Positions 31,315-63,694 of a DNA stretch of 64,000 bases are shown here, in pieces. Origin of the DNA: Candidatus Kaelpia imicola (lineage in GTDB: Bacteria; Omnitrophota; Gorgyraeia; Kaelpiales; Kaelpiaceae); contig JAVCCL010000032.1 in NCBI GenBank assembly GCA_030765505.1, positions 34,807 through 98,806 of the forward strand. Reading direction: 5' to 3'. Position 1 is the stretch's first letter; every line of letters begins with the position of its first letter. Below the pieces are notes generated by a model. The model saw nothing but the letters and a program-made list of their open reading frames with translations, was not told the DNA's origin and made no database searches. The position numbers were made by a program, and so were the translations under genes.

Positions 31315-31360
31315 GTAAAAATAAGTGAATTTATCTAAAAACAATTTTCTCTTGGTAAAA

Positions 31361-31533: not shown

Positions 31534-31622
31534 TTAATCCTTCCTAAATCTATATTACCCCTCAATTTGTATCGTATATATCTATATGGTATAAATATAT
31601 AAAAGGATGGCTTGGGCATAAA

Positions 31623-32528
31623 ATGAAGAGAATTTCAATTATTAGAATTATTTTGATATTTTTAGCGCTTGGTCTATTTATTCCAAATATTTCTTTTGCC
31701 AGAAGGGTGAGGGAAGTATTAACTCAAGTTGATAATTTTGGGACAGTTACTTATTATGAAAGTTATAATGGTAATTTTCGTCCATTAAAAATAGTTGATA
31801 AATTAGGTCATGTTTTAGATGAATATTATTATAGAGGTTCTGAATTAGATAGAGTTATAACAACAAATTTAGAGACAGGAGAAAAGTTAGAATTACGAAT
31901 AAAAAAAGTAGAAGGTAGGCCTGGATTACAAGCTGATATATACATTGAACAAAAATATGTGGGATTTCGAGAGTGGGAAATTAATGAAGGATGGATAATA
32001 TTGGGAGATATTACTATAGATGAAGGGATGCGCAAAAATGGTATTGGCTTAACGGTTTCAAATTGGATTGTTGCTTACTCAAATATGGTTGAAGGTGTTA
32101 CCAAAGCAACCACATTGTCTCAAAATCCTCTGATAATTTCTATTATGCAGCGTGTCACTAAGTTAGAGACAGTTAGTTATGCTCAAGCTGCTCTTTTGGG
32201 TATTAGAAGTCTAGGAACCAATTTAAGCAATACAGATCTTATTAAAAGTATAGAGTCTTTTTCTATTGGCAATGCTGACAATCTAAGGTTTGGTGTTGAT
32301 ATGTATAGGGTGATATTTGATGATAGCAAAGTTTTTTCTTCAAATTATCCATCGTTGCCAGTAGGAACAGAATTGGATAATTTTGAAGTTCTTGGTGATT
32401 GGATAGTTAAGTTGGATGGAGTTGTTATAGGCCAGATTAAATCTTTTTGTTCCTTTCTGTGTTTAGGTGGAGAGATAAATCCAATTCACGTTTTCATAGA
32501 CGAAGAAGGTAAAGTGGTTCAGTATTAA
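31623..32528 (+). CDS. secreted hypothetical protein, leader paralogous to 30025 gene, unrelated mature domain
   Basis: The first ~28 codons and ~110 bp upstream are nearly identical at nucleotide level to the 30025 gene (MKRISIIRIILIFLALGLFIPNISFARR). The rest has no similarity. Confidence 0.65.
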   Translation: MKRISIIRIILIFLALGLFIPNISFARRVREVLTQVDNFGTVTYYESYNGNFRPLKIVDKLGHVLDEYYYRGSELDRVITTNLETGEKLELRIKKVEGRPGLQADIYIEQKYVGFREWEINEGWIILGDITIDEGMRKNGIGLTVSNWIVAYSNMVEGVTKATTLSQNPLIISIMQRVTKLETVSYAQAALLGIRSLGTNLSNTDLIKSIESFSIGNADNLRFGVDMYRVIFDDSKVFSSNYPSLPVGTELDNFEVLGDWIVKLDGVVIGQIKSFCSFLCLGGEINPIHVFIDEEGKVVQY

Positions 32529-32587
32529 ATAGATTAAATTGTCAATTGATAGCTCTGCAATATGAACGATAATAGAGAGTTTTATTT

Positions 32588-32756
32588 CTGTGCCCAAACT
32601 GTGCCCATCTTACATCGAAACATCCGTAGGCAAACGTAAGCAAACGTAACAATCCGCACTCAGTAAATCCTTTACAAATAAGAGGTTTATAGTATAGTTT
32701 ATTGATGTATAAGGAGTTAAGGGATTTAGCCTAACAGAATCCCAGCCTCTCCGCTA
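32588..32756 (+). repeat. island repeat unit R (copy B) ending in variant att core
   Basis: Same architecture as 31361-31533: gtgcccaaactgtgcccatcttacatcgaaacatccgtaggcaaacgtaagcaaacgtaac...cagAATCCCAGCCTCTCCGCta. Confidence 0.75.
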
Positions 32757-32807
32757 GTTAATTTTGGCTTCAAATTAGAAGTTCCACCTCTTTTAGTAAT
32801 GTAGAAT

Positions 32808-33806
32808 ATGTTTAAAAGAATACTTAAAACAGTTTACTGTAATGCATCTTTAAGCCAAAAACGAAAATTTATAAAATGTTACAAATATTTTAAGAAAGGG
32901 TGGATTATAAAAAATATTCTTTCTTCATTAGTTAGACGTTTCTTTATAATACGCAAAATTAAAAATTTTGCTCTCTTCGAACAAATGTTTTATTCCCAAA
33001 ATGGAGAGGATGGCATAATAAAAGCAATATTTGGTAAAATAGGATCAACTAATAAATTTTGTGTAGAGTTTGGCATTCATCCAATGGAGGGTAATACCAT
33101 TTACCTACAAAAAAAAGGGTGGAATTGTTTATGGATGGATTAAAATGGTGATGGAAAAGTTATTAGAAAAGAATATATAACTGTAGAGAATATTAATCAG
33201 TTATTAGTAAATTACAATGTTCCTAAAGAATTTGACTTGCTTTCTATCGATATAGATTTCAATGATTATTGGATTTGGAAGGCAATCAGGGGATACTCCC
33301 CAAGAGTTGTAGTTATTGAATATAATTCCTCTATTCCTCCAGCAGAAAGTAAGACTATAGAGTATGATCAAAATGCCCATTGGGATGGCACTAATTATTT
33401 TGGAGCGAGTTTATTAGCATTAACAAAACTTAGTAAATCAAAAGGGTATACTTTAGTGGCATGTGATAAAAAAGGAACCAACGCTTTTTTTGTAAAAACT
33501 GATTTGATTAAGAATAATTTCAAAGTTAAAGAAGTTAAAAAGATTTACAACCCACCCAAATATGGCAAAAAAGTCAATGGCAAATACATTGGGCACCCTC
33601 CAAGTAATAAATCAATGAGTTCTATTTTAATTAGTATTTCTTATGCTGCCTCTCTGTATCATGCTGTGTCTACGACTTTGTTTTCGACATTTTTGCAGGC
33701 TCCATCCAAAAATTACTTCACTTTATTCCGCAAAATTTGTTTAATCATATGCGTTAAAAAGAATTTATTGCTCAGTTTGATGAAATCAAACAATCTCGTA
33801 GAATAG
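32808..33806 (+). pseudogene. disrupted gene: single reading frame interrupted by in-frame TAA (33141-33143); weak FkbM-methyltransferase-like C-terminal half
   Basis: ORFs 32808-33143 and 33237-33806 are in the same frame. Translation runs through ...KGWNCLWMD*NGDGKVIRKEYITVENINQLLVNYNVPKEFDLLSIDIDFNDYWIWKAIRGYSPRVVVIEYN... with only one stop. Confidence 0.5.
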
Positions 33807-34451
33807 GATTAAAAAAGCTTTAAATCGTCAGAAACAATAGACCGATAGGTAATAACTGACGTGCGGAGATTTTAGTCACTACTATTGTGTCTTACCTTTA
33901 CTTTTTTGTATAGTATACGATATCTAAACGGTAAGAGAGTGTTTATAGATAATGTGAGAAAATTACTCATTTTAGCATTTGTTATGCTTTTATTATAATA
34001 AAGATAGCCTTGTAAGTATTTCTTGCAGGACGAGAAAGCGTTAAGCGATACAAATTTTCTAAAATGATAATTTGTTTTCGGGTATTACTGTTCCATCCAT
34101 TCTTTTGAATCAAAGGATCTAAATGTAGCGGAGAGAAGAAGAGAATTAATAAGTCTCTTTGATAATTGTTTAAATAAAGAAGAGATAGATTTTCTAATTA
34201 CAGGTTCTATAAAATCAATTATGTTAGCTTCTCGCTAATAAGCCATATCCCTCAGTTAGTCAAGCTGTACCTATATTAGGTATACTACCTTAGGATATTT
34301 TTATAATTTAATCTTATATGCATATATCCAGTAGACTCTTTACAAAGAAATATTTCATAGTATAGTTTATTAATGCGTATATGTTGTGGGTGTTAATCAA
34401 ATAGTTATTATTGGTATTGATTGTATGGAGGTAATTGTTTAAAGAATTATT

Positions 34452-46710: not shown

Positions 46711-48282
46711 TTGTCAAACAATTTTAATAGATATATAAGCATAAATATGTTTAGACAGATATTAAGGAACTCTTTTACGATTGGAACAGCCACTTTTATC
46801 AGCAGGGTATTGGGGTTTATACGAGATATTTTGATTGCTTTTTTCTTTGGAACCGGCTATGAAGCTCAGGCTTTTGTTGTGGCTTTTCGTCTTCCGAATA
46901 TCTGGCGTAGTTTCGTGGGGGAGGAGGCGGTTAATGCTGCGGTTGTCCCGGTTCTATCTGAATATAGAGCTAAGGAAGATTCAGACAATTTTAAAGGTCT
47001 ATCTAAATCTCTTATAAAGTCTTCTGCCTTCATGTTGACTTTGGTTACTATAGGTGGGATTTTTTTTGCTCCATTGTTAATTAAGTTGATAGCACCTGGC
47101 TTTATAGCTGATATCCAAAAATATGTTCTCTCCGTTAGGTTGACCAGGGTAATATTTCCTTATGTACTTCTTATAGGGTTAACGGCTATAGTAGCGGGTA
47201 TTGCAATGTCTCAACGGATATTCTGGAGCTATTCCTGGGCTCCTGCCGTTTTAAATATCTCTATCATATCCAGCATTCTTGTCTTAGGCAGAAGATATGG
47301 AGTCTATGCATTGGCTTTTGGGATAATAATAGGTGGGGTCATTCAGCTTTTGATGCAGTTTTTTGCTATAAGAGGAAAAGGAGTGTATAGGGCAAAGACC
47401 AGGATGTTCCATCCGGAATATGGTAGGATTTGGAAGCTGTTGCTCCCCAGGTTTCTTGGTGCTGGAGTCTATCAAGTTAGCATATTTATAGATACTATCT
47501 TAGCCTCTCTTCAATCCATCGTAGGTTCCGGTGCTATTGCAGCTCTGTATTATGCTCAAAGGTTTGTACAGCTTCCACTGGCTGTTTTTGCTACCTCTCT
47601 TGCAACTGCGGTACTGCCTTTCTTCTCTGCCAGGAGAACAAAAAATGAAAATGCATCTATAGGAGATAATCTGCTTCTCTCTTTAAGGTTCGTCTCTTTT
47701 ATTATGATACCTGCGACGTTTGGTTTTTTCATTTTAGCAAAAGAGATAATATCTGTTGTTTTTCAACATGGTAGTTTCTCTAGTTATTCTACAGCTATAA
47801 CATCTGGTGCTCTGAGGTTCTATGCTTTAGGTCTGCTATTTTATGCGGGTATAAAGATTCTCGTTGTTACTTTCTATTCTATGCAGGATACTTTGACGCC
47901 GGTAAAGATATCGGTGATATCTTTAGCTGTAAATATAGCAGCTAGCATTGCCTTGATGTTTCCAATGAAAGTCTCAGGCTTATGTCTTGCCACCTCTTTT
48001 GCGGCAAGTTGTAATTTTATTCTGCTGTTCCTGGCTTTAAATAAAAAGATAAAGTTTTATAATAAAAATTTTGTATCAGGTATTTTAAAGATCTTGCTTT
48101 GCTCTGTTATCATGGCTGGAGCCCTACTCTTTACCAAGAGGTTGTTTTTGGAAAATATCTCTTCAGATATTTTGGTGCTTATCTCCCTGATATTGATATC
48201 AATATTTGTCTATCTATTTTCAAGTCTTTTTATAAACAGCGAAGATTTGCGGAGATTTATATGGTCTGGAAAGAAAAGATAG
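46711..48282 (+). CDS. murJ: lipid II flippase MurJ (MviN)
   Basis: ...ISRVLGFIRDILIAFFFGTGYEAQAFVVAFRLPNIWR... and 14 TM segments. The true start may be ATG 46747 (MFRQIL...). Confidence 0.85.
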   Translation: MSNNFNRYISINMFRQILRNSFTIGTATFISRVLGFIRDILIAFFFGTGYEAQAFVVAFRLPNIWRSFVGEEAVNAAVVPVLSEYRAKEDSDNFKGLSKSLIKSSAFMLTLVTIGGIFFAPLLIKLIAPGFIADIQKYVLSVRLTRVIFPYVLLIGLTAIVAGIAMSQRIFWSYSWAPAVLNISIISSILVLGRRYGVYALAFGIIIGGVIQLLMQFFAIRGKGVYRAKTRMFHPEYGRIWKLLLPRFLGAGVYQVSIFIDTILASLQSIVGSGAIAALYYAQRFVQLPLAVFATSLATAVLPFFSARRTKNENASIGDNLLLSLRFVSFIMIPATFGFFILAKEIISVVFQHGSFSSYSTAITSGALRFYALGLLFYAGIKILVVTFYSMQDTLTPVKISVISLAVNIAASIALMFPMKVSGLCLATSFAASCNFILLFLALNKKIKFYNKNFVSGILKILLCSVIMAGALLFTKRLFLENISSDILVLISLILISIFVYLFSSLFINSEDLRRFIWSGKKR

Positions 48283-49682
48283 ATAAGCTTCCGGATTTAG
48301 CCGGTGTCTATATTTTTAAAGATGTAAAAAGAGAGACTATTTATATAGGAAAAGCTAAATCAATATTTAAAAGAGTCTATAACCATTTTTATTCCAAAAA
48401 TACTAGCTCAAAAAGCGAGAGATTGATTTCCAGAGTAAAGAATATTGATTATATTATCACCTCTTCTGAGGCTGAAGCGTTATTGCTTGAATCATATCTT
48501 ATTAAAAGAGAGAAGCCTTTTTACAATATAAGTTTAAAGGATGATAAGTCTTATCCTTACCTTAAAATTATGCTTAAAGATGATTTCCCGCGTATCTTTG
48601 TAGCTCGCAATAAGAGTAAAGATGGTTCGCTCTATCTGGGCCCCTATCCGGATGTTAAGGGATTGAAGTTGACTCTTAAAATTTTGAGAGGGATTGTTCC
48701 TTTTAGAAGTTGTAGAAATTTTAGTAAGAACGGATGCCTTTATTTACATATAGGTTTCTGTCCTGGGCCTTGCCTGAGCAAAATAAGCCAAGCAGAGTAT
48801 CGCAAGAGCATATTAATTATAGTGAAGACTCTTCTTGGAGATAGAGAAGGTGTAGTGAAAGATTTAACGGAAGAGATGGACGGCTATGTTAAAGATAGAG
48901 AGTATGAGAAAGCTGCTAAGGTACGGGATAGATTGAGGGCTTTGGGAGGCAGTTCAGGCATCTTTGGTCTTAGCGGAGGGATTAATGTACTGGAGAACAT
49001 AAAGAAGATTTTAAATCTTCCTAAAGTGCCCCGCATTATTGATGCTGTGGATATATCTAATATATCTGGCACTTCTGCAGCAGGAGCCGTGGTTAGATTT
49101 AAAGACGGAGTTAGAGATAAAAATCTCTATCGCAAATTTAGGCTAAAAAAACAGAATTTTATAGATGATTATGAAATGATGTCTGAAGTTATGCTGAGGC
49201 GTTACAGGGATCTTTTCAAGAAAAAAGAAGATTTGCCTGATCTTATCATGCTTGATGGCGGTAAGGGTCATCTGAATAGAATTAGTGCGATTATTAACAA
49301 GGATTTTAAAATAGATATACCTTTGATTGCCTATGCTAAAGGAAGAGATCTCATTCACTCCGGATATAGAAAGAGCCCCGTAGCTCTATCTCAAAATTCT
49401 TTGGAGAAGAATCTTCTTATCAGGATAAGAGATGAGGCTCACAGGTTTGCTATTGGATACCACAGGCGTTTGAGAGGGAAGAGAATGAAAAAGACTGCTT
49501 TTGAAAATATACCCGGAGTCGGTATATCTAAAGTCAATGCTGTTTTAAAATACCTCAGCGATTTAGGTCGCTATAAAGATATATCGGTTTCAGATCTAAA
49601 AAGAATTAAAGGCATCGGCGATATGCTTGCAGGGAGGATATATAATTATGTTAAAAAGAAAGGAATTAAAGAAACTTCTTAA
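48261..49682 (+). CDS. uvrC: excinuclease ABC subunit C
   Basis: GIY-YIG module AGVYIFKDVKRETIYIGKAKSIFKRVYNHF...PFYNI, RNaseH-like endonuclease region and C-terminal HhH (IPGVGISKVNAVLKYL...IKGIGDMLAGRI). Start ATG 48261 overlaps the murJ end. Shorter (~474 aa) than typical UvrC. Confidence 0.85.
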   Translation: MVWKEKIDKLPDLAGVYIFKDVKRETIYIGKAKSIFKRVYNHFYSKNTSSKSERLISRVKNIDYIITSSEAEALLLESYLIKREKPFYNISLKDDKSYPYLKIMLKDDFPRIFVARNKSKDGSLYLGPYPDVKGLKLTLKILRGIVPFRSCRNFSKNGCLYLHIGFCPGPCLSKISQAEYRKSILIIVKTLLGDREGVVKDLTEEMDGYVKDREYEKAAKVRDRLRALGGSSGIFGLSGGINVLENIKKILNLPKVPRIIDAVDISNISGTSAAGAVVRFKDGVRDKNLYRKFRLKKQNFIDDYEMMSEVMLRRYRDLFKKKEDLPDLIMLDGGKGHLNRISAIINKDFKIDIPLIAYAKGRDLIHSGYRKSPVALSQNSLEKNLLIRIRDEAHRFAIGYHRRLRGKRMKKTAFENIPGVGISKVNAVLKYLSDLGRYKDISVSDLKRIKGIGDMLAGRIYNYVKKKGIKETS

Positions 49683-49968: not shown

Positions 49969-50005
49969 CCTGTTTGTATATATTATGAATCTATTGGGAG
50001 GAGAT

Positions 50006-51080
50006 ATGAGAGATAACTTAATACAGAGAGTGGTAGAGCTTAAAGAGAGATTTCAAGAACTGCGAGGTTTTCTTTAACCTGGATAAAAAGAATAAACATA
50101 TAGCAGAGATAGAAGAGAAGATATCTCAGCCTGGATTTTGGGATCAGGGCTCTATAAATACCAGCATCCTTAAAGAACTCAAAATCCTTAAAGAGAGTGT
50201 TGGAGATTCCAAGTTTTTAGAGAGAGAGTTAAAAGATTTAAAAGAGTTGATTGATATATCAACGGATGAAGAGGACAATTCTTTGTCTTTAGAGTTGAAA
50301 AAAGTTGAGTCAGAGATTAATAGATTAGAATTCAAGGCTTACCTAAGTGAACCCCATGATTCCGGCAATGCTATAATGTCAATCCATGCCGGGGCTGGCG
50401 GTACGGAGTCTTGTGACTGGACTCAGATGTTAATCAGAATGTATTCCAGGTGGGTTGAAAAAAGAGGGTATAAGATAGAGATGCTGGATATTCTAGAAGG
50501 TGAAGAGGCTGGTGTTAAAAATGCTACTTTTATCATAAAGGGCGATTATGTCTACGGTTTTTTAAAGGCTGAGAAAGGGGTTCATAGATTGGTGAGAATA
50601 TCACCTTTTGATGCGAATAAGCGCAGACATACTTCTTTTGCATTAGTTGAGGTGCTGCCTGAAGTCGAAGATATTGAAGTTAATATAGATGGTAAAGATT
50701 TAAGAATTGATACATTCCGTTCTTCTGGTGCCGGCGGTCAGCATGTGAATGTAACGGACTCTGCAATACGAATAACGCATAACCCAACCGGCATTGTTGT
50801 TGAGTGCCAGAATGAACGTTCCCAGCATAAAAATAAAGCTACAGCTATGAAGGTCCTGAGATCTAAGCTTTATGATTTAAATAAAGAGAAGCAGAAGGAA
50901 GAGCTTCAGGAGATGCGGGTTAAAGGAGATATAGGCTGGGGTTACCAGATACGTTCCTACGTCTTACATCCCTATACCATGGCAAAAGACCATAGAACTG
51001 GATTGGAGGTTGGTAATGTCCAGGGTGTATTAAATGGTAACATAGACGGTTTTATAGAAGCCTATTTGAAGAAAAGGTAA
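50006..51080 (+). CDS. prfB: peptide chain release factor 2 with programmed +1 frameshift (site CTT TAA C at 50072-50078)
   Basis: RBS GGGAGGAG. Frame 0 reads MRDNLIQRVVELKERFQELRGFL*. The +1 frame continues NLDKKNKHIAEIEEKISQPGFWDQ...SPFDANKRRHTSFA...GGQHVN(GGQ)..., aligned to E. coli RF2 ([27 protein letters not shown]) at the homologous frameshift position. Confidence 0.85.
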
Positions 51081-55436: not shown

Positions 55437-55570
55437 AGTTCGAGTCCTTGTTGGGGAGTTTTTATATTTAAGCCTCTGTAAAACAATAACTTACAGAGGT
55501 TTTTTTATTTATTTTAAAAACAGCGTGGTTATTTGACACTGCGTATATATGTGGTATATATATTGCAGAT
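55437..55570 (+). repeat. intergenic terminator+promoter module, copy 1 (second copy 56584-56720)
   Basis: ggggagtttttatat.taaGCCTCTGTA...CAGAGG.ttttttatttat...cgtggttatttga...tggta.a.ata...tatattgc shared between the two loci. Confidence 0.7.
55473..55510 (+). terminator. rho-independent terminator (member of repeated intergenic module)
   Basis: aaGCCTCTGTAAaacaataacTTACAGAGGtttttttattt. Confidence 0.6.
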
Positions 55571-55615
55571 ACTTTGTGAGGCGTGAGGGGGATGGAATGA
55601 AAAAAGGAGCTCAAT

Positions 55616-56521
55616 GTGATTAAAAAGGGTATGGCTGGCTGGTTTCTATTATTAATGTTTATTATAGTAGGTTGTTATGAAAATTTTGCAATATTTACTA
55701 ATAATGAAGATTCTACCCAGGATTATGCTTTACACCTACGTAGATTAAAAGATTCTTCTTTTCAATTCCAAGATATTGCTCAACCCGATTTTTTTGAAAG
55801 AAACTGGGAACGTTTGCGCGATGGAATACGTTTCCAATCATCTTCTGGCATTCTCATAGAGATACGAAGAAACGATGAAGCGTTCGTTATGGTATGCGTA
55901 TATAATCCAAAAGATTCTACTCAGATGACAGAGGCAGGCCAGTTTGTTGAAATTTATAATGCTAGTCTCGATAGCATAAGGAAAATAGAGCAAGAAAGAG
56001 GTATAGTAAATCATTATCAAGTTGGAGTACCAACAAATAGTCCTATTACACCTGCTATATATGATTTTTATAGCGTAACAAATTTAACTGAAAAGGAATT
56101 TAATATCTATCTTGAAGGTGTTAGGCAAGTAAAAGCAGGTTCTATCAAAGATACATATGATATAGTAGATCCTGATTTAAGAGAAACAGCTAAAATATTA
56201 GCCACGGATATTGCCGCGGAGATAGGAGGAAGACGTCTGGATCCTGTACTTATGATAGCAAGTAAACAAAAATTGATTGAAGGGTTAGAGATTTTTTTAA
56301 GAGAGTATGATAAAGAATTGTTTGGTTTTAGTTTTTGCGGTGATAGTATCAAAGAACAAAATATTTTTATAGGCGGAAGGATAATAAAAATTGGCGAGTT
56401 GGAAGAGCTAGCACTTCGGTTAAAACAATGCAAATCTTATCTTGAGGGAGACTTAGGCAATCTTTTTTATCGCTCGTATCTAATGTACGCACAAGGAATG
56501 CCGATAATAAGCTTTAGATAG
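55616..56521 (+). CDS. putative lipoprotein, hypothetical
   Basis: AAGGAG 6 nt upstream of the GTG start. MIKKGMAGWFLLLMFIIVGC has a lipobox-like IVGC. Confidence 0.5.
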   Translation: MIKKGMAGWFLLLMFIIVGCYENFAIFTNNEDSTQDYALHLRRLKDSSFQFQDIAQPDFFERNWERLRDGIRFQSSSGILIEIRRNDEAFVMVCVYNPKDSTQMTEAGQFVEIYNASLDSIRKIEQERGIVNHYQVGVPTNSPITPAIYDFYSVTNLTEKEFNIYLEGVRQVKAGSIKDTYDIVDPDLRETAKILATDIAAEIGGRRLDPVLMIASKQKLIEGLEIFLREYDKELFGFSFCGDSIKEQNIFIGGRIIKIGELEELALRLKQCKSYLEGDLGNLFYRSYLMYAQGMPIISFR

Positions 56522-56617
56522 TCAGGTGTTATTATAATCTTATCTGTAATTTTCTTTAGCTTCCTCTGAGTATAGCCAGTTGCGAAATTCGTCCAACACG
56601 GGGAGTTTTATATCTCA

Positions 56618-56658
56618 AGCCTCTGTATAGCGATAAGTTTCAGAGGCTTTTTTATTTA
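56618..56658 (+). terminator. rho-independent terminator (second copy of repeated intergenic module)
   Basis: aAGCCTCTGtatagcgataagtttCAGAGGCTtttttattt. Confidence 0.6.
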
Positions 56659-56681
56659 TCCAAATAAAATGACGTGGTTAT

Positions 56682-58082
56682 TTGAAATCGGTAATTACAT
56701 ATGGTACAAATACTATATATTGCTTAATAAAATATAAGGGGGATGAAATTATAGCAATCGTAAAAAAATGTTTACTTAGTGTATGTGTGATAGTTTTTTT
56801 GCTTAATCTTCACTCATTTTTTATATCTAAAGAAATTTCCAATTCATCTGTATCGCAAAATTCCGCTTATAGAAGATGTAGATATTTTTCTAATTATCCA
56901 AGAGAACAAATAATTGGTATTACGATCCGGAAAAAAGAAGCTCTGCTGTGGAATTATAGAAACGGTAATGTGCCAGCTGATTTATATGAGATAATTGGCA
57001 GAAACCTTGACGTAATTATTAATGGAGGCATTGAACAGATTTATAATTATTTTCCAATAAATCGTATTAATAATAATGTTGCTGAACATATTAATGTTTC
57101 ATTTTGTAATATGTTACTAAACATTGTGTTGCAAAATGAGCCTGATTTAAATGGAAATCAACGTAGCGCTTTATATGGAAATATTGATAGCTATCTAATG
57201 ACTCCGGAAATAAAAATTGCTCAACTTACAGAAGGAGAAAAGACTCTTTCCTCTTCACATATTGTAGCGAAACCCTGGGGAATGGAAGTCTGGATTGCGG
57301 AAAATGATCTTTTCGGGATAAAAGCCATATATATAATGCAAGGAGAACATGAGTCTGTTCAGTGGCATATGAAAAAAACTGAATCTCAGTTGTATTTTGG
57401 ACATGGAGAGATTTTGCATTTGCTTCTAGATGAGTTTGGAAATTTAAGAGAAAAAGTAGGATTATTCCATGAGTCTGACATGGAAGAGGTATCGTCTTTT
57501 TTTGATAGTTTACCTTTTGTGAATATTGGCGGTGAAAATTTGACTATTCGAAATATACCTGTGGGTACTGTGCATACTTCAAGACCTACTCAGGGACTTA
57601 TTATGCACTTGGAATTTAATTCAGGGGAAGAAGCTGCAGCTCCAACTGTGACTACTAGATTATTAGATAAATACACAGATAGCGAAAGGACTATTAAAGA
57701 AGCTCAAAGATTAAATATAAATTGGTGGGGCCCGAGGCTTCCTGTTGCATTAGGAGACGATGTAGCAAGAGTTGAATTTTCTGATGCGGGAAGAGAAATA
57801 CAGGAAAGTATAATTACTGAAGATGATGGTGTAGTGAGAATAGAGACTACGCCCAACTATGTGATTGATCAAATCACTTTTTCTAATGGAGAAAGTAGAA
57901 ATATTGGAGGACGTACACGTACATCGGAAGTAGTACTTGTATTAAATGGAATATTGAATGTAATCAAAGAAGGTCAACACTATTCATTGTTTCCTGGAGA
58001 GGTTTTAGAAATAGAGAAGGGAGAAAGTATTACTTTAACATCTTATGATAAGTGTAAAATTATACATACTTACGCACCATGA
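56682..58082 (+). CDS. bicupin protein, mannose-6-phosphate isomerase type II-like cupins; N-terminal hydrophobic segment; start uncertain
   Basis: VAKPWGMEVWIAENDLFGIKAIYIMQGEHESVQWHMKKTESQLYFGHGEIL carries the KPWG...H...H cupin motif. A second cupin-like block is at the C-terminus. The track's TTG start lies inside the promoter-like repeat, so the real start is probably near 56760. Confidence 0.45.
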   Translation: MKSVITYGTNTIYCLIKYKGDEIIAIVKKCLLSVCVIVFLLNLHSFFISKEISNSSVSQNSAYRRCRYFSNYPREQIIGITIRKKEALLWNYRNGNVPADLYEIIGRNLDVIINGGIEQIYNYFPINRINNNVAEHINVSFCNMLLNIVLQNEPDLNGNQRSALYGNIDSYLMTPEIKIAQLTEGEKTLSSSHIVAKPWGMEVWIAENDLFGIKAIYIMQGEHESVQWHMKKTESQLYFGHGEILHLLLDEFGNLREKVGLFHESDMEEVSSFFDSLPFVNIGGENLTIRNIPVGTVHTSRPTQGLIMHLEFNSGEEAAAPTVTTRLLDKYTDSERTIKEAQRLNINWWGPRLPVALGDDVARVEFSDAGREIQESIITEDDGVVRIETTPNYVIDQITFSNGESRNIGGRTRTSEVVLVLNGILNVIKEGQHYSLFPGEVLEIEKGESITLTSYDKCKIIHTYAP

Positions 58083-58095
58083 GGTTTATATTCAG

Positions 58096-60234
58096 ATGAA
58101 AAATTTTAAGTTAAAAAAATATCGATTCAACTGTATCATCACTCTCATAATATTTTTGTTTAATTTGAACGTGGCATTCGCAAGAAGGATACAGGATGTA
58201 GAGACTTCTTTTCCTAACAGTGTCGTTGATATAGTAGATGAAGCCAGGAGAAAAGGTGTCACTGTTTTATTCATTGGGCCACAATCACCTTTAATTGTAG
58301 ATTCTGCAATACTGGCAGCTCGAATTGAACAGCAGCCGCTAATATTTATACCTAGCCGTAATCAGGTTGATATGGACGAATTTGGTGGTGGGTATGTGGA
58401 AGGTTGGAATCAAGAACGTTTCGTAGGATTTGTAAGGCAACGCATGCAAGAATTAGGAGCTAGCGATGTTCCCGTTTATTTTTATCGTGATCATAGTGGA
58501 CCTTGGCAAAGAGATGAAGAGTTTAGAGAGGCGATTTCTGCTGAGGAAGCTATGCAGCGAGCTAAAATGTCGCTTCTTGCAGATTTGAAAGCGGGTTTTA
58601 ATGTACTTCATATAGATGCTAGTAGAAGTCCTCATAGTTCTGAGTGTGTTGAGTTAGGTAAGGTACAAGAAATGTTGATGTTACAGAGAACAGTTGAACT
58701 GATTGAATATGTTGAAAACCAACGTTGTACGCTAGGATTACCAGCTATTCAATATGAGGTTAGGGGAGAAAGGAAATATTGGGACCAAAGTATGATTGAA
58801 ATAACAGAACGTTTTTTAGTCTCTTTAAAAAGACTTCTTGAACTACGGGGTTTAAATCAAGACCTGATAGGATTTGTTACTGTTAATCCTTCTCCTTTAA
58901 GAGAGCGAGGTACTAGCCAAGCTGTACTAGATGAGGATTTTGTTCAACGATTGGCTGCTTCGATTAATGAGCAAGGTTATTATGTCAAATATCACAACGG
59001 TGATTTTATGGATCCATCTGATCGCGAAAAACTATCTTCATTAGGAGTGTATACACTAAATGTTGCACCGGAAGTTCCAGTAGTGCAAACACGTGCTTTA
59101 TTAGCTTTGGCAGATGAAGAAACGCGCATTTTAGAAAATGTTGCCAACAACGGTCTTGTTCCATCTCATTTGCGAGAGGTTATTACTGAGGCTGTATTTT
59201 TAGATGGTCGTTGGAAAAAATGGGTTCCACTTACAGAAGGCTGGAGTGAGGAAGATGTTAGATCTGATCATGCAAAATTAAAAGAAGTCGTTGAATTCAA
59301 TGCTCACTATTCCTATGGAGATAGTGAGGTGCAAGGAGCTCTGAGACTGTTAGAGCAGAATATGAATAGTTTACGATACGAAAACTATTTGCAGTTATTT
59401 ATACAAAGCAGAATCATCACAAAAATTATGGATTTTTATGAGTCATTGGATGGTATAACTCAGGTGCAATCCAGTCAGCATTCTTATGATATTTATGGAG
59501 ATAAAATAATTAGCAATGTAGAAGCTATAAGAGAGATACAAGAAAATACTGGTATTAGTCGACCAATAACAGTTGCTATTACTGGAGATATGGCAGCAGG
59601 TAAAACAACATTTGTCAACGGTGATGGAGATTTAAATATACAAGGACTCAAGAAGCGTTTAGAAGATAAAGGGCATACAGTTGTTTTGATAGATGACGAA
59701 ATGTTCTTGGAAAGCAGAGAAACACGACTGTTAGGACAATCATCTTTAGATACTAATGATCGTAACTTTGATTTTTTATACTTTCAACATCTTTTCGATC
59801 AGAATGCAATGCAATATTTGTTTGAAGAATTAGGTTCGTTCATAAGGGGCAGTCAAGCTATCTTATCAGTGCCTTTTCAAATATATGATCGAACAACAGG
59901 AAGACGTGGTCGAAACATAAATTTTAATATACCTCGCGATGCCGTAATAATATATTCAGGAGTAATGCTTAATCATTTGCCTCATGAGGTAGGTTTTGAT
60001 ATCTCTGTTTCAATGGAGTATAATATGCAGGATACAGATGAAGTTTTAGCTCGTATTCTTCAACGTGAAAGTAGAAAACCAAGTATGAATCAAATAAGTA
60101 GAGAAGAACTGTTGCAGAGAATCCGATATGATTTAGCTGCTTATAGACTTTATAGAATAAAATTTCCTTTCCAAGGTGATTATATAATAGATGTAAGCTC
60201 ATTTGAAGAGCCAATTTTAATCAACAACCTATAA
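58096..60234 (+). CDS. fusion protein: FARR-type leader, GatZ/KbaZ-like (tagatose-bisphosphate aldolase accessory fold) domain, C-terminal P-loop kinase (uridine kinase/PRK-like)
   Basis: Leader MKNFKLKKYRFNCIITLIIFLFNLNVAFA|RR. LFIGPQSPLIVDSAILAARIEQQPLIFIPSRNQVDMDEFGGGYVEGWNQERFVGFV...YRDHSGPWQRDEE...AGFNVLHIDASR aligns block-by-block with E. coli GatZ. C-terminal Walker A ITGDMAAGKTTFV, then VVLIDDEMF. Confidence 0.6.
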   Translation: MKNFKLKKYRFNCIITLIIFLFNLNVAFARRIQDVETSFPNSVVDIVDEARRKGVTVLFIGPQSPLIVDSAILAARIEQQPLIFIPSRNQVDMDEFGGGYVEGWNQERFVGFVRQRMQELGASDVPVYFYRDHSGPWQRDEEFREAISAEEAMQRAKMSLLADLKAGFNVLHIDASRSPHSSECVELGKVQEMLMLQRTVELIEYVENQRCTLGLPAIQYEVRGERKYWDQSMIEITERFLVSLKRLLELRGLNQDLIGFVTVNPSPLRERGTSQAVLDEDFVQRLAASINEQGYYVKYHNGDFMDPSDREKLSSLGVYTLNVAPEVPVVQTRALLALADEETRILENVANNGLVPSHLREVITEAVFLDGRWKKWVPLTEGWSEEDVRSDHAKLKEVVEFNAHYSYGDSEVQGALRLLEQNMNSLRYENYLQLFIQSRIITKIMDFYESLDGITQVQSSQHSYDIYGDKIISNVEAIREIQENTGISRPITVAITGDMAAGKTTFVNGDGDLNIQGLKKRLEDKGHTVVLIDDEMFLESRETRLLGQSSLDTNDRNFDFLYFQHLFDQNAMQYLFEELGSFIRGSQAILSVPFQIYDRTTGRRGRNINFNIPRDAVIIYSGVMLNHLPHEVGFDISVSMEYNMQDTDEVLARILQRESRKPSMNQISREELLQRIRYDLAAYRLYRIKFPFQGDYIIDVSSFEEPILINNL

Positions 60235-60249: not shown

Positions 60250-61460
60250 AAGCATCATAATAAGATCCTACCTGTGCAAAAATTTACTCATTCTCTATAA
60301 TAATGTCTAATAATCCCACCCAGCCTTGATTCACATTTAACCCTGCCGTCTAAATTCTTTGACCTATATCTTATTGGCATATTATTCAGTGCCGAATGCG
60401 GCCTTACGGTATTGTAATATTTAACGTACTCCTTAACCAAATACCTAAAATGCCTCTCTCCAAACACAAAGAAATAATCCAAACATTCTCTCTTTATCGT
60501 TCCCACCCACCCTTCTGCATAAGGGTTTAAATTAGGTGATCTATAGGGAATCTTCTTTACCCTCACTCCGTATTCTTCGATTATCCTGTCAAATTCCTTG
60601 GAATATTTCCCGTCTCCGTCTCTTATCAGAAGCTTTCTGTCCGATTCCTTACCTGTTTCAAATAAAAAAGATACACTTCTTGCTCTGTTAGTTACCCATT
60701 CCCTGTTAGGATGTTTGGTAATTCCTGCAATATGAACTTTCCTTGTATGCACATTAATAAAGAATAACGCATGGAGGCTCTTTGGCCCCGCCATTGTCCA
60801 TACGGTCTTTGTAAAGAAGTCACAAGCCCAGAGGGTCTTAACGTGCCTTTTGATAAAATCATCCCAGGTATCCTCAGTTCTTTTGGGAGTCGGATCAAGC
60901 CCGTTCTCTTTTAAGATATTCTTTATGGTATTTCGTGATAGGCAGTATATCCTCAGCTTCTTAATCTCACCTAATATTCTTGTATAACCCCAGTTGTTCT
61001 CTTTGGCCAGCTTTCTGATCTCTTGTTTGGTTCTTGGCCTTCCTCTTTTGGGGCTTTGTTTTCCCTGAGGCTCTCTGCCTTTAACCCATCTTCTAAAACT
61101 GGAATAACTGACAATAGAAATCAATTTCTGTATATCACCTTTTAAAGGAAGGCCATATTTAATGAGCCTTCTCTTTTCAGTCGGGGTAATAATGATACGG
61201 CCTTTGATTTTCTTACGCAGGATCTGGTTTTCTACCTTAAGGTATTCTATCTGCCTGATCAACCGGCTATGCACTAAGTGCTCTAAAAGAAACAAAAACT
61301 TTTGAAAAAGCCTGCCGTTCGTGTTATAAAAGCACTTGCTTGACATGTTTACCTCCTTGAAATTGCACCGTTTTGGTTAAATGTCCACCCCATGAGGCTG
61401 GACATCTTGCAACTGTTTGAAAACAAAAGAGTTATTCAAATTGACTCTCCAAAATACCGG
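60250..61460 (-). mobile_element. IS481-like insertion sequence (boundaries approximate; inverted repeats not resolved)
   Basis: Transposase ORF with short flanks. Terminal IRs could not be identified confidently by eye. Confidence 0.35.
60288..61346 (-). CDS. IS481-family DDE transposase (rve integrase core)
   Basis: N-terminal HTH/leucine-zipper (LIRQIEYLKVENQILRKKI) fused to a DDE core (...HTRKVHIAGITKHPNREWV...LIRDGDGKYSKEFDRIIEEYGVRVKKIPYRSPNLNPYAEGWVGTIKRECLDYF...). Single-ORF architecture typical of IS481. Confidence 0.85.
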   Translation of the reverse strand: MSSKCFYNTNGRLFQKFLFLLEHLVHSRLIRQIEYLKVENQILRKKIKGRIIITPTEKRRLIKYGLPLKGDIQKLISIVSYSSFRRWVKGREPQGKQSPKRGRPRTKQEIRKLAKENNWGYTRILGEIKKLRIYCLSRNTIKNILKENGLDPTPKRTEDTWDDFIKRHVKTLWACDFFTKTVWTMAGPKSLHALFFINVHTRKVHIAGITKHPNREWVTNRARSVSFLFETGKESDRKLLIRDGDGKYSKEFDRIIEEYGVRVKKIPYRSPNLNPYAEGWVGTIKRECLDYFFVFGERHFRYLVKEYVKYYNTVRPHSALNNMPIRYRSKNLDGRVKCESRLGGIIRHYYRE

Positions 61461-61881
61461 ACAAAATTGGACAAATTTACCACCTTTTAGCCGTATTCTC
61501 TTAATTTTTGCCCCCTGGAACCATTAGCCTGTTAAATACAAGTTCGAGCCTCTTGCGGGGCGGTGATAATGCTACTAAAACAACCTCTCTGAATTGGCAT
61601 ATAATCCGATATATCTGGTTATATAGCGCATATCTATAAGCCCAGGAATCAGAGATATAATTATAACTAATATTTGCACGGGGAGCCAGTTACTTATCGT
61701 AGCCGGGGATTTTTTATAGGGAAAATGTTTTTCTCGCAGTAGAAATACAGAGTTCGGATTTTTACCCGAATTGACCCCCCTTATTCAGATATCCGAACTT
61801 TTTTGTTTCTTGACTTTTTGGTTTGGAAATGGTTATATTTATATAACCATTTAGTTATTTGGTTGTGAAAGGGTGTTTTTT

Positions 61882-62223
61882 ATGAAAGATTTGGATGTTA
61901 TCTTTAAGGCGTTGGCTGATGTTAATAGGGTGAGGATTTTGAAACTTCTCGGCAGGCGCAGGATGTGTGTTTGTGAGCTTGCGTTTGTTTTGGGGGTTTC
62001 TCAGCCTGCTGTGTCGAAGCAGCTTAAGAAAATGGTAAAGGCTGGTTTGGTTGATTGTGAGCAGGACGGGTTTTGGACTAATTATTTCATTAGCCCAAAG
62101 AATCTTTACGCAAAGAAGCTGTTGACAATACTGAGTCAGTGGTTAAATGATGAAAAAATGATAATTGATGATTTGAAGAAAACAGAGAAAGCTAATAGAG
62201 AAAAGCTCTGCTGCAAGAAGTAA
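61882..62223 (+). CDS. ArsR/SmtB-family transcriptional regulator
   Basis: VNRVRILKLLGRRRMCVCELAFVLGVSQPAVSKQLKKMVKAGLV: winged HTH with a Cys pair in the metal-sensing position. Confidence 0.8.
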   Translation: MKDLDVIFKALADVNRVRILKLLGRRRMCVCELAFVLGVSQPAVSKQLKKMVKAGLVDCEQDGFWTNYFISPKNLYAKKLLTILSQWLNDEKMIIDDLKKTEKANREKLCCKK

Positions 62224-62260
62224 ATATTTTTTTGCAAAAATTATATAACCAAATGGAAAT

Positions 62261-63445
62261 ATGGAGACAAGGATGAAGGAAAGAGATAGGTTTTTGTTGA
62301 TGTTTGCAGCTTTTTTGGGATGTTTTTATCTGCCTGTGGAGCTTCTGCCTTTCAGAAATCCTGTCTTTGAATCTCTTGCATTGGTTCGGTGGTATGCACG
62401 TGAGCATGTTTTGCTTTGTCTTGTTCCTGCCTTCTTTATTGCGGGTGCTATCTCGGTTTTTGTAAGTCAGGCATCAGTGATTAAGTATTTTGGCGCAGAA
62501 GCCAAAAAGGTATTAGCTTATAGCGTTGCTTCTGTTTCGGGGACTATTCTTGCTGTTTGTTCCTGCACGGTTCTTCCGTTGTTTTCCGGTATTTATAAGA
62601 AAGGGGCTGGTTTGGGGCCTGCTGTTGCTTTTCTTTATTCTGGGCCAGCTATTAATGTTTTGGCCATAATAATGACTGCTCGAATTCTCGGTTGGCAGTT
62701 AGGCGTAGCCAGAGCCATAGGAGCTATTGTATTTAGTGTGGTTGTTGGGCTTTTGATGCATCTCATATTTCTTAAGGAAGAGCGTGCGAGACAGGTTAGC
62801 GGAAAGTTTCAGTTTGGTAAAGAAAAGGAAGCACGGCCTCTTTGGAAGAACGGGATGTATTTTTTCTCTATGGTCGCAGTCCTTGTTTTCGCTAATTGGG
62901 GAAAGCCTCAGACTGGTGATGCTGGCTGGTGGGCTGTTGTTTTTGGTTCGAAGTGGGTGATTACGCTTGTTTTTTTGTCTCTTTTGGGCTTTATGCTGTT
63001 TCGGTGGTTTAAGAAAAACGAGCTTAAAGAATGGACTGGTTCGTCATGGTCTTTTGCAAAGCAGATTATGCCTCTTCTCCTTGCCGGCGTTCTTGTAGCG
63101 GGTCTTCTTCTGGGAAGGCCGGGGTATGAGGGTTTGATCCCGTCTCGGCTTATTGAAATGCTTGTTGGCGGCAATTCGTTGTCTGCTAATTTTTTTGCTT
63201 CGATTGTCGGGGCGTTCATGTATTTTGCCACCTTGACTGAGGTTCCGATTTTGCAGGGACTTATAGGTGCAGGTATGGGGAAAGGGCCGGCATTAGCTCT
63301 TTTGCTTGCTGGGCCTGCTTTGAGTCTTCCTAACATGCTTGTTATCAGGGGTGTGATTGGCACAAAGAAGACGGTTGTTTACGTAAGCTTGGTCGTTGTC
63401 ATGGCAACAATAAGCGGAATTATTTTTGGAATTATTGCAGGATAA
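62261..63445 (+). CDS. ArsP/DUF318-family permease (CSC-motif membrane permease)
   Basis: Polytopic. AVCSCTVLPLFSGIYKKGAGLGPAVAFLYSGPAINVL matches the ArsP T-P-F-C-S-C-S motif region. Confidence 0.65.
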   Translation: METRMKERDRFLLMFAAFLGCFYLPVELLPFRNPVFESLALVRWYAREHVLLCLVPAFFIAGAISVFVSQASVIKYFGAEAKKVLAYSVASVSGTILAVCSCTVLPLFSGIYKKGAGLGPAVAFLYSGPAINVLAIIMTARILGWQLGVARAIGAIVFSVVVGLLMHLIFLKEERARQVSGKFQFGKEKEARPLWKNGMYFFSMVAVLVFANWGKPQTGDAGWWAVVFGSKWVITLVFLSLLGFMLFRWFKKNELKEWTGSSWSFAKQIMPLLLAGVLVAGLLLGRPGYEGLIPSRLIEMLVGGNSLSANFFASIVGAFMYFATLTEVPILQGLIGAGMGKGPALALLLAGPALSLPNMLVIRGVIGTKKTVVYVSLVVVMATISGIIFGIIAG

Positions 63446-63463
63446 AAATAGGAGGAAATAAAG

Positions 63464-63694
63464 ATGAAGATTGAGATTTTAGGCATGGGTTGTCCAAAAT
63501 GCAAACAGCTCTTTGATAATGCCGAGAAAGCTTTAAATGAATTGGGCATTGAGGCGGAATTGGTCAAGGTTGAGGATATGGATAAAATAACGGAGTATGG
63601 CGTTATGACTACGCCTGCTTTGGTTGTTGATGGAAAAGTTAAGGTTGCTGGCAAGGTGCCTTCGAGCGATGAGATTAAGGGGCTGCTTTCATAA
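63464..63694 (+). CDS. thioredoxin-fold redox-active disulfide protein (small, CPKC)
   Basis: MKIEILGMGCPKCKQL...VMTTPALVVDGKV: redox-active disulfide protein 2 family. Confidence 0.75.
   Translation: MKIEILGMGCPKCKQLFDNAEKALNELGIEAELVKVEDMDKITEYGVMTTPALVVDGKVKVAGKVPSSDEIKGLLS

Follow-up and report, generated by a model that had tools for sequence, protein, structure and literature searches.

The analysed window, a stretch of 64,000 nucleotides from Ca. Kaelpia imicola, encodes a 712-aa protein in which a GatZ/KbaZ-like barrel is fused to a divergent P-loop domain of the PRK/uridine-kinase type. The fusion carries a predicted N-terminal leader and belongs to the same operon as a cupin protein. 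We propose that it is a leader-bearing two-domain sugar-phosphate enzyme acting together with its operon partner, and give this reading as a whole a probability of about 0.55. The same two domains had been named in the initial annotation, and both calls are right according to the profiles, AF2 models and Foldseek, while some of its wording on the kinase and on the gene neighbourhood had to be revised.

Gene and Start Codon

The frame of the fusion CDS (58096–60234, forward strand; 712 aa) is intact in the ORF and its translation, and all sequence blocks quoted for it in the initial annotation are present. The product is identical to NCBI MDP8216724.1 from the metagenome-assembled genome of Ca. 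Kaelpia imicola (Omnitrophota), where its only name is “tagatose-bisphosphate aldolase non-catalytic subunit”. The ORF opens at 58045, and the ATG at 58096 is found 13 nt beyond the stop of the upstream cupin gene. This position, together with the Shine–Dalgarno-like GAGG (58081–58084, forward strand), located 11 nt upstream and overlapping the cupin stop codon (58080–58082), makes ATG 58096 the likely start; in other genes of the window, the Shine–Dalgarno sequence is GGAG or GGAGG at 6–9 nt. A start at 58045 was rejected because of its overlap with the upstream gene and the lack of a Shine–Dalgarno sequence at a suitable distance. The internal candidates TTG 58156, TTG 58165, and GTG 58171 all lack a Shine–Dalgarno sequence.

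GatZ/KbaZ-Like Barrel

Residues ~41–455 (58216–59460, forward strand) comprise a GatZ/KbaZ-like TIM barrel of the class II aldolase fold, which is indicated by the profile, the homologues, and the AF2 model. The protein scores 51.6 bits with Pfam PF08013 (GatZ_KbaZ-like; cut-off 26.7), the best stretch covering profile positions 14–160 of 420, and GatZ-like proteins of ~420 aa match the barrel with E down to 7e-63. The AF2 model of the barrel has a pLDDT above 90 over most of its length, and Foldseek relates it to 3txv (E 5.8e-18, TM 0.79) and 2fiq (E 1e-16).

The catalytic residues known from E. coli GatZ are found at the expected places: D132-H133 (58489–58494) corresponds to the catalytic Asp87 and the Zn ligand His88, E225 (58768–58770) to the Zn ligand Glu171, and H300 (58993–58995) to the Zn ligand His257, all encoded on the forward strand. 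These four columns show no variation in alignment A4, of which E. coli GatZ is a member. In the E. coli protein, Asp87, His88, Glu171, and His257 have catalytic and Zn-binding roles in retro-aldol/aldol chemistry, and work published in 2025 identified the GatZ/KbaZ “aldolase chaperones” as C4 epimerases converting F6P to T6P, which are set apart from class II FBP aldolases by Cys20, Glu44, and Lys279 (PMC11907403). In the barrel, these three markers are replaced by G61, I85, and N322, and the nearest stand-alone clade has the same G/I/N combination. Equivalog scores of the fusion protein are far below the thresholds (47.1 vs 568.8 for TIGR02810; 28.7 vs 579 and 38.1 vs 707 for the NF011626/NF012002 set), and neither a GatY/KbaY aldolase nor a galactitol/GalNAc PTS was found among the neighbours of the gene in the window. 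E. coli GatZ and KbaZ (2fiq, 3txv) share with the barrel the fold, the Pfam family, and the Asp plus His/Glu/His metal set, but the identity is only ~20%, and the fusion adds a leader and a kinase-type domain and has no GatY partner nearby.

The best relatives of the barrel (33–38% identity) form a clade of stand-alone 420-aa GatZ-like proteins, mostly of Bacillota type (for example, Mesobacillus and Helcococcus). These proteins are leaderless, single-domain, and cytoplasmic, and their genes share PTS operons with those of transketolase, TAL/FSA, and HAD proteins. The barrel matches 69% of the conserved columns of this clade, and two loops conserved in it at 90% or more are changed (VGTEETNGG to VRGERKYWD and VGQTGT to TVNPSP).

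Kinase-Type P-Loop Domain

Residues 455–712 (59458–60231, forward strand), which abut the barrel with no linker, represent a divergent P-loop domain of the PRK/uridine-kinase/PanK fold. Direct profile matches of these C-terminal 258 aa to PRK and uridine kinase are weak (E 2e-4 to 5e-3); profile A2, which combines the domain with a few relatives, reaches 1rz3 at 5e-13, uridine kinase at 3e-10, and PRK at 2e-8. A Pfam scan had been proposed as a check of both domains: it bears out the barrel but gives no match to PF00485 for the fusion protein; the PRK fold is recognised through profile A2 and AF2. NCBIfam scores are also far below the thresholds (20.6 vs 236 for PRK; 16.3 vs 180 for uridine kinase), while one relative of the domain, P0062, does pass PF00485 (28.7 vs 22). 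The AF2 model of the domain has a pLDDT of 72.5 and a pTM of 0.73, and Foldseek relates it to PRK, PanK, and UCK2 with a probability of 1.00 and E from 6e-9 to 1e-7.

Most of the family motifs are retained. The alignment with relatives reveals the Walker A motif GDMAAGKT (residues 497–504; 59584–59607), the DDE triplet 533–535 followed by SRETR 540–544 (59692–59727), and RESRK 657–661 (60064–60078), a lid-like segment with the R-E-x-x-K pattern conserved in the domain family, all on the forward strand; the YDRxTG motif is kept as well. The acidic catalytic residue of these kinases is located after strand 2, in the “DD” motif of PRK and at Asp62 in UCK2, and D533-D534-E535 fall opposite the PRK “DD” and in the column where the relatives have D or E. 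The R-x-x-R in SRETR resembles Arg64/Arg67 of PRK, which bind the phosphate of Ru5P. The exception is S621 (59956–59958, forward strand), located in the column that holds the Glu of the Walker-B-like “EG” at the end of strand 3 in 8/8 relatives. This makes the earlier description of an “authentic” kinase too strong: owing to the replacement of Glu by Ser, the kinase activity may be weak or dead, while D533/D534 could compensate for the lost Glu. The domain resembles PRK, UCK, and type I PanK (PF00485; 1rz3, 3asy, 6gve, 1uj2, 1esm) in its fold, Walker A, acidic motif, R-x-x-R, and lid Arg, but differs from them in falling below every curated threshold when taken alone, in the Ser at the “EG” position, and in an insertion after the P-loop, which is common only to the fusion protein, P0068, and P0079/P0065. 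Its C-terminus is complete and aligns to the end of the homologues.

N-Terminal Leader

Residues 1–29 (58096–58182, forward strand) read MKNFKLKKYR, FNCIITLIIFLF, and NLNVAFA, followed by RR, and resemble a signal peptide or signal anchor of the Sec type. The n-region has a charge of +5, the h-region extends from C13 to F22, and the c-region NLNVAFA ends in a predicted AFA|RR site. The leader passes an SPase I-type rule (charged n-region, hydrophobic h-region of 10–15 residues, small residues at -3/-1), which is also passed by the leaders of LptE and of the lipoproteins encoded in the window. It resembles the leaders of the BamD-like, LptE, and TPR proteins of the window, two of which also have the FA|RR ending, and AF2 models this region as a helix (residues 2–37).

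The leader suspected earlier thus appears real, since shuffling of its own residues restores the n/h/c layout in only 93 of 20000 cases (0.5%). Random DNA with the composition of the leader-coding stretch 58099–58200 is stop-free in 715/20000 cases (3.6%), and one signal-like peptide was found among these 715 sequences. A Tat signal was rejected because of the RR, which comes after the hydrophobic core and not before it, and a lipoprotein signal because there is no Cys. In E. coli, RR at +1/+2 of the cleavage site is unfavourable for Sec export; in the fusion, this pair directly after the predicted site may hinder export or turn the segment into an anchor, and counts against its export.

Operon and Neighbourhood

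Upstream of the fusion, in the same transcription unit, is the cupin protein gene (56682–58082, forward strand), the product of which has a hydrophobic N-terminal segment. The initial annotation described this protein as a PMI-type bicupin: two cupins are indeed present, the first with a PMI-type signature and the second EutQ-like, but the PMI match reaches 23.3 bits, just under the cut-off of 23.6. The word-indexed search revealed no homologues of the bicupin, and its PDB matches are only marginal. Its 5' cassette (56600–56750, forward strand) comprises a terminator hairpin, a promoter-like TTGAAA-17-TACAAA, and a GGGGGA Shine–Dalgarno sequence. The true start of the cupin gene is uncertain because the annotated TTG coincides with the -35 box of this promoter, and no canonical start codon is present 3' of the promoter. 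The fusion gene is co-transcribed with the cupin gene from this single predicted promoter.

A homologous copy of the cassette is found at 55453–55600, and the Rfam scan of both cassettes gave nothing meaningful. Behind the copy lies an orphan lipoprotein-like gene (55616–56521, forward strand; lipobox IVGC), which may be co-regulated with the cupin–fusion operon; family and homologue searches with this gene returned nothing.

The gene pair was previously placed in an IS-flanked accessory stretch, a description that does not hold. The region contains a single IS (60268–61685, reverse strand) with an IS3/IS481-like rve transposase (60288–61346) and candidate inverted repeats, and it is located only downstream, while SecA and Lnt genes are found on the upstream side. 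The base composition is unremarkable, which leaves a foreign island unsupported. The IS begins 34 nt after the fusion stop codon, and truncation of the gene by this element was rejected, as the C-terminus of the product aligns to the end of the homologues. PADLOC revealed no defence-system match. The window also holds an archaeovorin-like gene set, including SecA_DEAD-like, S8, and C39 peptidases.

Search for the Same Fusion

The combination of a GatZ-like barrel with a kinase-type domain was called non-standard in the initial annotation, and the search for it elsewhere agrees with this view: no second fusion and no orthologue were found in any protein database or genome and metagenome scan used. 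The scans returned only leaderless single-domain GatZ-like genes. The exhaustive search was used since a word-indexed search restricted to the C-terminal domain returned nothing and missed even the fusion protein itself. One locus, L014 (48% identity over 100 aa), was considered as a second fusion and rejected, being a frameshifted stand-alone gene beside a ROK kinase. Matches to the giant proteins P0058–P0060 were set aside as they involve short stretches of PKD/repeat proteins, and no GatZ-like segment was detected in the giants bearing the kinase-type domain.

The closest relatives of the kinase-type domain sit in giant multi-enzyme proteins of the Omnitrophota type. Signal-like N-termini are present in several other multi-domain carriers of this domain: P0068, P0079, P0063 and P0066 (HD domains). 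P0068 is annotated as Omnitrophota and combines the domain with ARMT1 and radical SAM domains.

The nearest parallel to the operon is the metagenomic protein P0057, which includes HAD, PMI-type cupin, and GatZ-like domains in one chain and has neither a leader nor a PRK-type domain. Its halves match both genes of the operon (E 2e-22 for the GatZ-like part and 2e-8 for the cupin). P0057 is encoded within a glycan-synthesis cluster (WcbI, HtrL, GT90, NTP_transferase+APH), and differs from the fusion in that the place of the PRK-type domain is taken by its phosphatase domain and by an APH-type kinase/nucleotidyltransferase encoded next to it. The operon structure and the HAD–cupin–GatZ-like fusion both support the view that the cupin and the GatZ-like domain are functionally connected, in line with the pairing suggested earlier.

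Discussion

The domain content suggests that the protein most likely combines a kinase with a retro-aldol epimerase or aldolase acting on a ketose phosphate. The P-loop domain would phosphorylate a sugar or, similarly to PRK, a sugar phosphate; the barrel would epimerise the product at C4, as in the GatZ-type F6P/T6P conversion, or cleave a ketose phosphate; and the upstream cupin would carry out an aldose–ketose isomerisation. The operon as a whole may thus interconvert an unusual hexose phosphate, and the most likely role of the leader is to direct the fusion to the periplasmic side or to anchor it there.

This location may be compared with what is reported for other Omnitrophota. Two preprints describe long Omnitrophota proteins that bear glycolytic-type, sugar-metabolism, and kinase domains, with a signal peptide or TM helix in 94% of them; their aldolase and isomerase domains are predicted to be extracellular, although the true extracytoplasmic placement of such domains is left open by both (bioRxiv 10.1101/2023.11.21.568195, 10.64898/2026.06.07.730766). 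The preprint text searched names neither GatZ-like nor PRK-like domains. The fusion shares with the giants (“archaeovorins” and others) the phylum, the N-terminal signal or TM segment, and the combination of sugar-phosphate and kinase-type domains, but has just 712 aa, two domains, and one hydrophobic segment, far below the thousands of residues of the giants. Judged by its sequence, it fits the exported or membrane-anchored multi-enzyme class of Omnitrophota in its origin, N-terminal segment, and enzyme domains, but not in length. Given the leader and the published reports on this phylum, it is plausible that the protein acts at the membrane or outside it. The strongest form of this proposal, in which the leader is functional and both the epimerase/aldolase and the P-loop phosphotransferase work in the periplasm, on the cell surface, or inside prey, appears doubtful. 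ATP-dependent chemistry is not expected in the periplasm, which counts against a periplasmic enzyme.

A fairly unlikely reading is that the protein is an ordinary cytoplasmic bifunctional enzyme, which either starts internally (TTG 58156, TTG 58165, or GTG 58171) or has a helix unused for export. The substrates of both chemistries are cytoplasmic, the stand-alone relatives of the barrel all lack a leader and belong to cytoplasmic operons of the PTS, transketolase, and transaldolase kinds, and translation from GTG 58171 would yield an N-terminus of ordinary length. However, it is ATG 58096 and not the internal codons that is placed 13 nt past a stop and accompanied by GAGG, the leader-coding stretch has a composition that would stay open in just 3.6% of random DNA, the peptide that it encodes resembles a signal far more than chance would allow, and leaders also occur in other multi-domain proteins that carry the kinase-type domain. 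The opposite placement, beyond the cell, would make the fusion a secreted effector, which passes through Sec and a further system to act in or on prey or host cells with ATP and sugar phosphates. The leader, the archaeovorin-like gene set in the window, and the reports of Omnitrophota as predatory or host-dependent bacteria with exported multi-enzyme proteins are consistent with this. We find it distinctly improbable, as no secretion-system genes are present beside the operon, there is neither a toxin/immunity pair nor a PADLOC match, and nothing points to passage past the inner membrane.

Two further explanations concern the activity of the protein. It is unlikely that we are dealing with a degraded or non-enzymatic orphan fusion, specific for this lineage and serving, if at all, for binding or as a scaffold, or being lost. 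The Ser at 621 opposed to Glu in 8/8 relatives, the outlying position in the conserved columns of the GatZ-like clade, the lack of orthologues in the databases searched, the orphan cupin partner with its doubtful start, and the adjoining IS would suit such decay. Nevertheless, a frame of 712 codons remains open in AT-rich DNA, the four GatZ catalytic residues are kept together with Walker A, DDE, R-x-x-R, YDRxTG, and RExxK, the C-terminus is complete as compared with the homologues, and D533/D534 could stand in for the lost Glu. The database annotation, favoured by the Pfam family match and the NCBI name, would make the protein a GatZ/KbaZ orthologue, the non-catalytic subunit or chaperone of GatY/KbaY tagatose-bisphosphate aldolase. 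This is extremely improbable given the TIGR02810 score (47 bits vs 568.8), the presence of G, I, and N instead of the markers C20, E44, and K279, and the absence of any GatY-like gene nearby; it also takes no account of the kinase-type domain of 258 aa or of the leader.

The reading of a leader-bearing two-domain sugar-phosphate enzyme, which we prefer, has several implications. The annotation as a “non-catalytic aldolase subunit” is corrected, as it misses one third of the protein. P0057 provides fusion-based evidence for cupin isomerases and GatZ-like barrels working together, and the comparisons define a small divergent PRK-like domain subfamily, which occurs in CPR bacteria and in multi-domain proteins with leaders, one or more of these being from Omnitrophota. 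If the protein does act outside the cytoplasm, nucleotide-dependent sugar-phosphate chemistry would occur in a compartment where such reactions are not expected. The giant proteins are too large for a direct test, while the fusion packs the same puzzle into an expressible protein; given a functional leader and action outside the cytoplasm, these 712 aa would represent a minimal, experimentally tractable model for the “extracellular metabolic enzyme” domains of the Omnitrophota giants.

The Fusion Gene and Its Operon

The open frame at 58045..60234 of the window encodes, from ATG 58096 (58096..60234, forward strand), a 712-aa protein in which a leader is followed by a GatZ/KbaZ-like barrel and a P-loop domain of the PRK/uridine-kinase type, the two domains being joined at about residue 455 in one frame and without a linker. 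The peptide blocks quoted in the initial annotation were all found in the translation, and the coordinates of key residues were checked. The product is identical to MDP8216724.1 (NCBI), encoded on a 103-kb contig of the metagenome-assembled genome of Ca. Kaelpia imicola and entered in the database as [quoted passage not shown]. The genus Kaelpia belongs to Omnitrophota and was described from Ace Lake. No second protein with both domains was found in a search of 5.8 billion clusters, in an exhaustive search with the C-terminal domain, in the GTDB species genomes or in JGI metagenomes, which bears out the earlier view that this architecture is not a standard one.

The start lies 13 nt beyond the stop (58080-58082) of the upstream cupin gene (56682..58082); since the fusion gene follows it directly, the two form a single transcription unit. 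The cupin gene had been described as a PMI-type bicupin: two cupins are present, the first with the type II PMI signature KPWG...SVQWHxxxxE and the second EutQ-like, but the PMI score of 23.3 bits falls under the cut-off of 23.6. Homologous cassettes of about 150 nt (55453-55600 and 56600-56750) precede, respectively, an orphan lipoprotein gene (55616..56521, lipobox IVGC) and the cupin gene; in each, a terminator hairpin with z about -3.5 is accompanied by promoter-like elements (TTGACA/TTGAAA and a -10-like hexamer, 17 nt apart) and by a GGGGGA box, which is followed by a mini-ORF of 2-3 codons. The TTG at which the cupin gene is annotated to begin (56682) coincides with the -35 hexamer of its cassette, and therefore the real start must be downstream. 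No canonical in-frame start occurs between the -35 box and GTG 56784, and ahead of the hydrophobic segment the frame offers only ATT, ATA and ATC as candidates.

A metagenomic protein of 573 aa (P0057) carries a HAD phosphatase, a PMI-type cupin and a GatZ-like part on one chain, the GatZ-like part matching our protein at E 2e-22 and the cupin matching the neighbouring cupin at E 2e-8. Its locus is a glycan cluster (WcbI, HtrL, GT90 and an NTP-transferase/APH-kinase fusion). By the logic of this fusion, the cupin and the barrel would share one pathway, in which phosphoryl transfer would also be needed.

The GatZ/KbaZ-Like Barrel

The domain assignment stands, as the Pfam GatZ_KbaZ-like model is passed at 51.6 bits (threshold 26.7). 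AlphaFold2, run with the barrel relatives, gave a confident barrel that superposes on 3txv (E 6e-18) and 2fiq (E 1e-16) with TM 0.76-0.79, followed by class II FBP and TBP aldolases. The closest relatives are single-domain proteins of about 420 aa (33-38% identity, E down to 7e-63). Two of them were examined, and each is encoded in a PTS operon that also has transketolase and a PRD regulator; TAL/FSA and an adjoining HAD phosphatase are present as well at the Helcococcus locus. A partner GatY, the tagatose-bisphosphate aldolase of E. coli, was found at neither locus.

E. coli GatZ and KbaZ are F6P-to-T6P C4 epimerases; Asp87 of GatZ is assigned as the base, His88, Glu171 and His257 are assigned as Zn ligands, and Cys20, Glu44 and Lys279 are given as family markers different from FBP aldolases (PMC11907403, 2025). 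Aligned with E. coli gatZ, our protein retains the catalytic set as D132, H133, E225 and H300, and the marker positions are occupied by G61, I85 and N322, variants also found in its nearest clade. Of the columns conserved to 90% or more within this clade it matches only 69%, and two loops deviate (VGTEETNGG to VRGERKYWD and VGQTGT to TVNPSP). Judged by these alignments, the barrel is a member of the GatZ/KbaZ-like superfamily with catalytic residues, not a GatZ ortholog, and it probably has its own substrate.

A Divergent Kinase-Type Domain

Direct profile matches of the C-terminal domain are weak: TsaE (P-loop only), PRK (E 2e-4) and uridine kinase (5e-3). When 1.84 billion representatives were searched exhaustively for matches to residues 455-712, only 12 proteins reached E ≤ 1e-3. 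Four are stand-alone proteins of about 260 aa (P0061, P0062, P0064 and P0067), and the cluster of one of them has CPR-annotated members (Taylorbacteria, Zambryskibacteria). The domain is embedded in multi-domain proteins in P0065/P0079, P0066 (two HD domains), P0063 (WD40) and P0068, where it accompanies an ARMT1-like phosphatase and radical SAM and which is annotated as Candidatus Omnitrophota. All other multi-domain carriers (P0068, P0079, P0063 and P0066/P0080) have signal-peptide-like N-termini. The motifs GxxxxGK[ST], D[WY]F, R-x-x-R, YDRxTG, EG and RExxK mark a small, divergent PRK/uridine-kinase-like subfamily, which appears to have no prior description as a family.

The profile of these relatives matches 1rz3 (5e-13), uridine kinases (3e-10), PRK (2e-8) and PanK, and the AF2 model from their alignment (pLDDT 72.5, pTM 0.73) matches PRK, PanK and UCK2 at probability 1.0. 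Our protein retains Walker A (GDMAAGKT), DDE at the PRK “DD” position, SRETR, YDRTTG and RESRK. An insertion after the P-loop is common only to it, P0068 and P0079/P0065, and by this feature its domain looks closest to those within large leader-bearing proteins. In PRK, Arg64 and Arg67, just past the DD strand, bind the Ru5P phosphate; the R-x-x-R pair of the family, which in pairwise alignment is one residue out of register with the PRK pair, hints at a possibly phosphorylated substrate.

The Leader

Residues 1-29 (MKNFKLKKYR-FNCIITLIIFLF-NLNVAFA, then RR) comprise an n-region of charge +5, a hydrophobic core of 10-12 residues and a c-region with Ala at -3 and -1. This leader conforms to a simple n/h/c rule, as do those of LptE, the orphan lipoprotein, a TPR protein and its paralog, ORFs 15951 and 40129, and the membrane protein Lnt in the window; the leader of a BamD-like protein is similar by eye. 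When the residues of the leader are shuffled, just 93 of 20000 permutations pass the rule. Random DNA of the same composition as the leader-coding stretch is stop-free in 3.6% of trials, 1/715 of these being signal-like.

Two other window proteins, mutual paralogs at the leader, end it in SFA followed by RR, so the “FARR” of the initial annotation is a recurring feature here. Genes 30025 (the TPR protein) and 31623 (an orphan), which are neighbours of each other, have the near-identical leader MKRISII[KR]I[VI]LIFLA[FL]GLFIPNISFARR with the same FA-RR ending as the fusion protein; repeated intergenic blocks occur at both, within a stretch (29928-34375) of repeat families D1-D5. The shared ending points to a motif for cleavage or sorting that is peculiar to this organism. 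Two Arg right after the predicted cleavage site disfavour Sec export in E. coli. The predicted leader of the fusion protein may be a cleaved signal or an uncleaved anchor.

Genomic Surroundings

The proposed “IS-flanked accessory stretch” is not supported: there is one IS only, downstream, no repeats or second IS copy border the stretch, G+C is ordinary, and core genes (UvrC, MGMT-like, RF2, SecA, Lnt) lie on the 5' side of the operon. The IS (about 60268-61685, reverse strand) encodes an IS3/IS481-like DDE transposase (60288-61346, reverse strand), has candidate imperfect terminal inverted repeats (60268-60284 and 61669-61685) and no second copy in the window. Truncation of the fusion gene by the IS was rejected, as the C-terminus of its product is complete by comparison with homologs. 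Beyond the IS lies an operon of an ArsR-family regulator, an ArsP-type permease and a small thioredoxin-like protein (61827-63694). In front of these genes, a perfect palindrome of 12 nt, AAATGGTTATAT/ATATAACCATTT (61827-61852), coincides in part with a promoter-like site and probably serves as the operator.

A +1 frameshift divides the RF2 gene (49985-51080): the end of ORF0 reads ...CGA GGT TTT CTT TAA C at 50072-50078, with GAGG just upstream of the slippery site and UAA after it, and the +1 frame goes on NLDKKNKHIAEIEEKISQPGFWD into the PCRF/RF-1 ORF. The canonical RF2 frameshift stop is UGA. The listed UvrC ORF (48099-49682) overlaps the murJ end (46711-48282) by about 180 nt and shows GIY-YIG from residue 69 only; the true uvrC start is probably further downstream.

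Discussion

The observation of the initial annotation is confirmed and its interpretation partly supported. The analysis establishes which domains the protein has, which residues it conserves, how its operon is built and that the fusion is unique among the sequences searched. We slightly favour (probability about 0.55) an intact, leader-bearing bifunctional sugar-phosphate enzyme of the Omnitrophota exported or tethered multi-enzyme class. The barrel would perform a GatZ-type retro-aldol epimerisation or cleavage, the P-loop domain a PRK-type phosphotransfer, and the cupin would be their partner as an isomerase.

Several rivals compete with this reading. The protein may be used in the cytoplasm via an internal start; however, no Shine-Dalgarno sequence was found at the in-frame TTG 58156, TTG 58165 and GTG 58171 within the leader, whereas ATG 58096 has GAGG 11 nt upstream (GGAG/GGAGG stands 6-9 nt 5' of the start in other window genes). 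A true GatZ chaperone is opposed by the NCBIfam equivalog models for AgaZ/GatZ/KbaZ, where our protein scores 10-20 times under the cut-offs, and by its changed marker residues. A degraded or non-catalytic protein finds support in the kinase-type domain, where Ser621 at the end of strand 3 replaces the Glu of the “EG” motif present in 8/8 relatives. Because of this replacement the “authentic” P-loop kinase claimed earlier is not established, although the PRK/uridine-kinase-type fold and Walker A are. A secreted effector is the other rival.

The exported or tethered enzyme that we favour has parallels in its phylum. Long and giant proteins of Omnitrophota are the subject of two preprints (bioRxiv 10.1101/2023.11.21.568195; bioRxiv 10.64898/2026.06.07.730766); GatZ-like or PRK-like domains are not mentioned in the one whose text was searched for them. 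In one catalogue of long proteins 94% have a signal peptide or TM helices, with modules centred on sugar metabolism and kinases/phosphotransferases, and aldolase, isomerase, FBPase and PGM domains of giant proteins are predicted to be extracellular, which puzzled the authors themselves. In the window itself, large ORFs, most of them with leaders, follow one another at 1226-19296: 1524 aa (no Pfam match), 2402 aa (divergent SecA_DEAD), 974 aa (S8 peptidase with fervidolysin-type propeptide), 512 aa (C39-like) and 569 aa. The SecA_DEAD/S8/C39-like set is reported as the hallmark of the giant “archaeovorin” genes of Omnitrophota, although here it is split over separate ORFs. The 712-aa fusion protein, with its leader and two enzyme domains, fits on a small scale the pattern of the long and giant Omnitrophota proteins.
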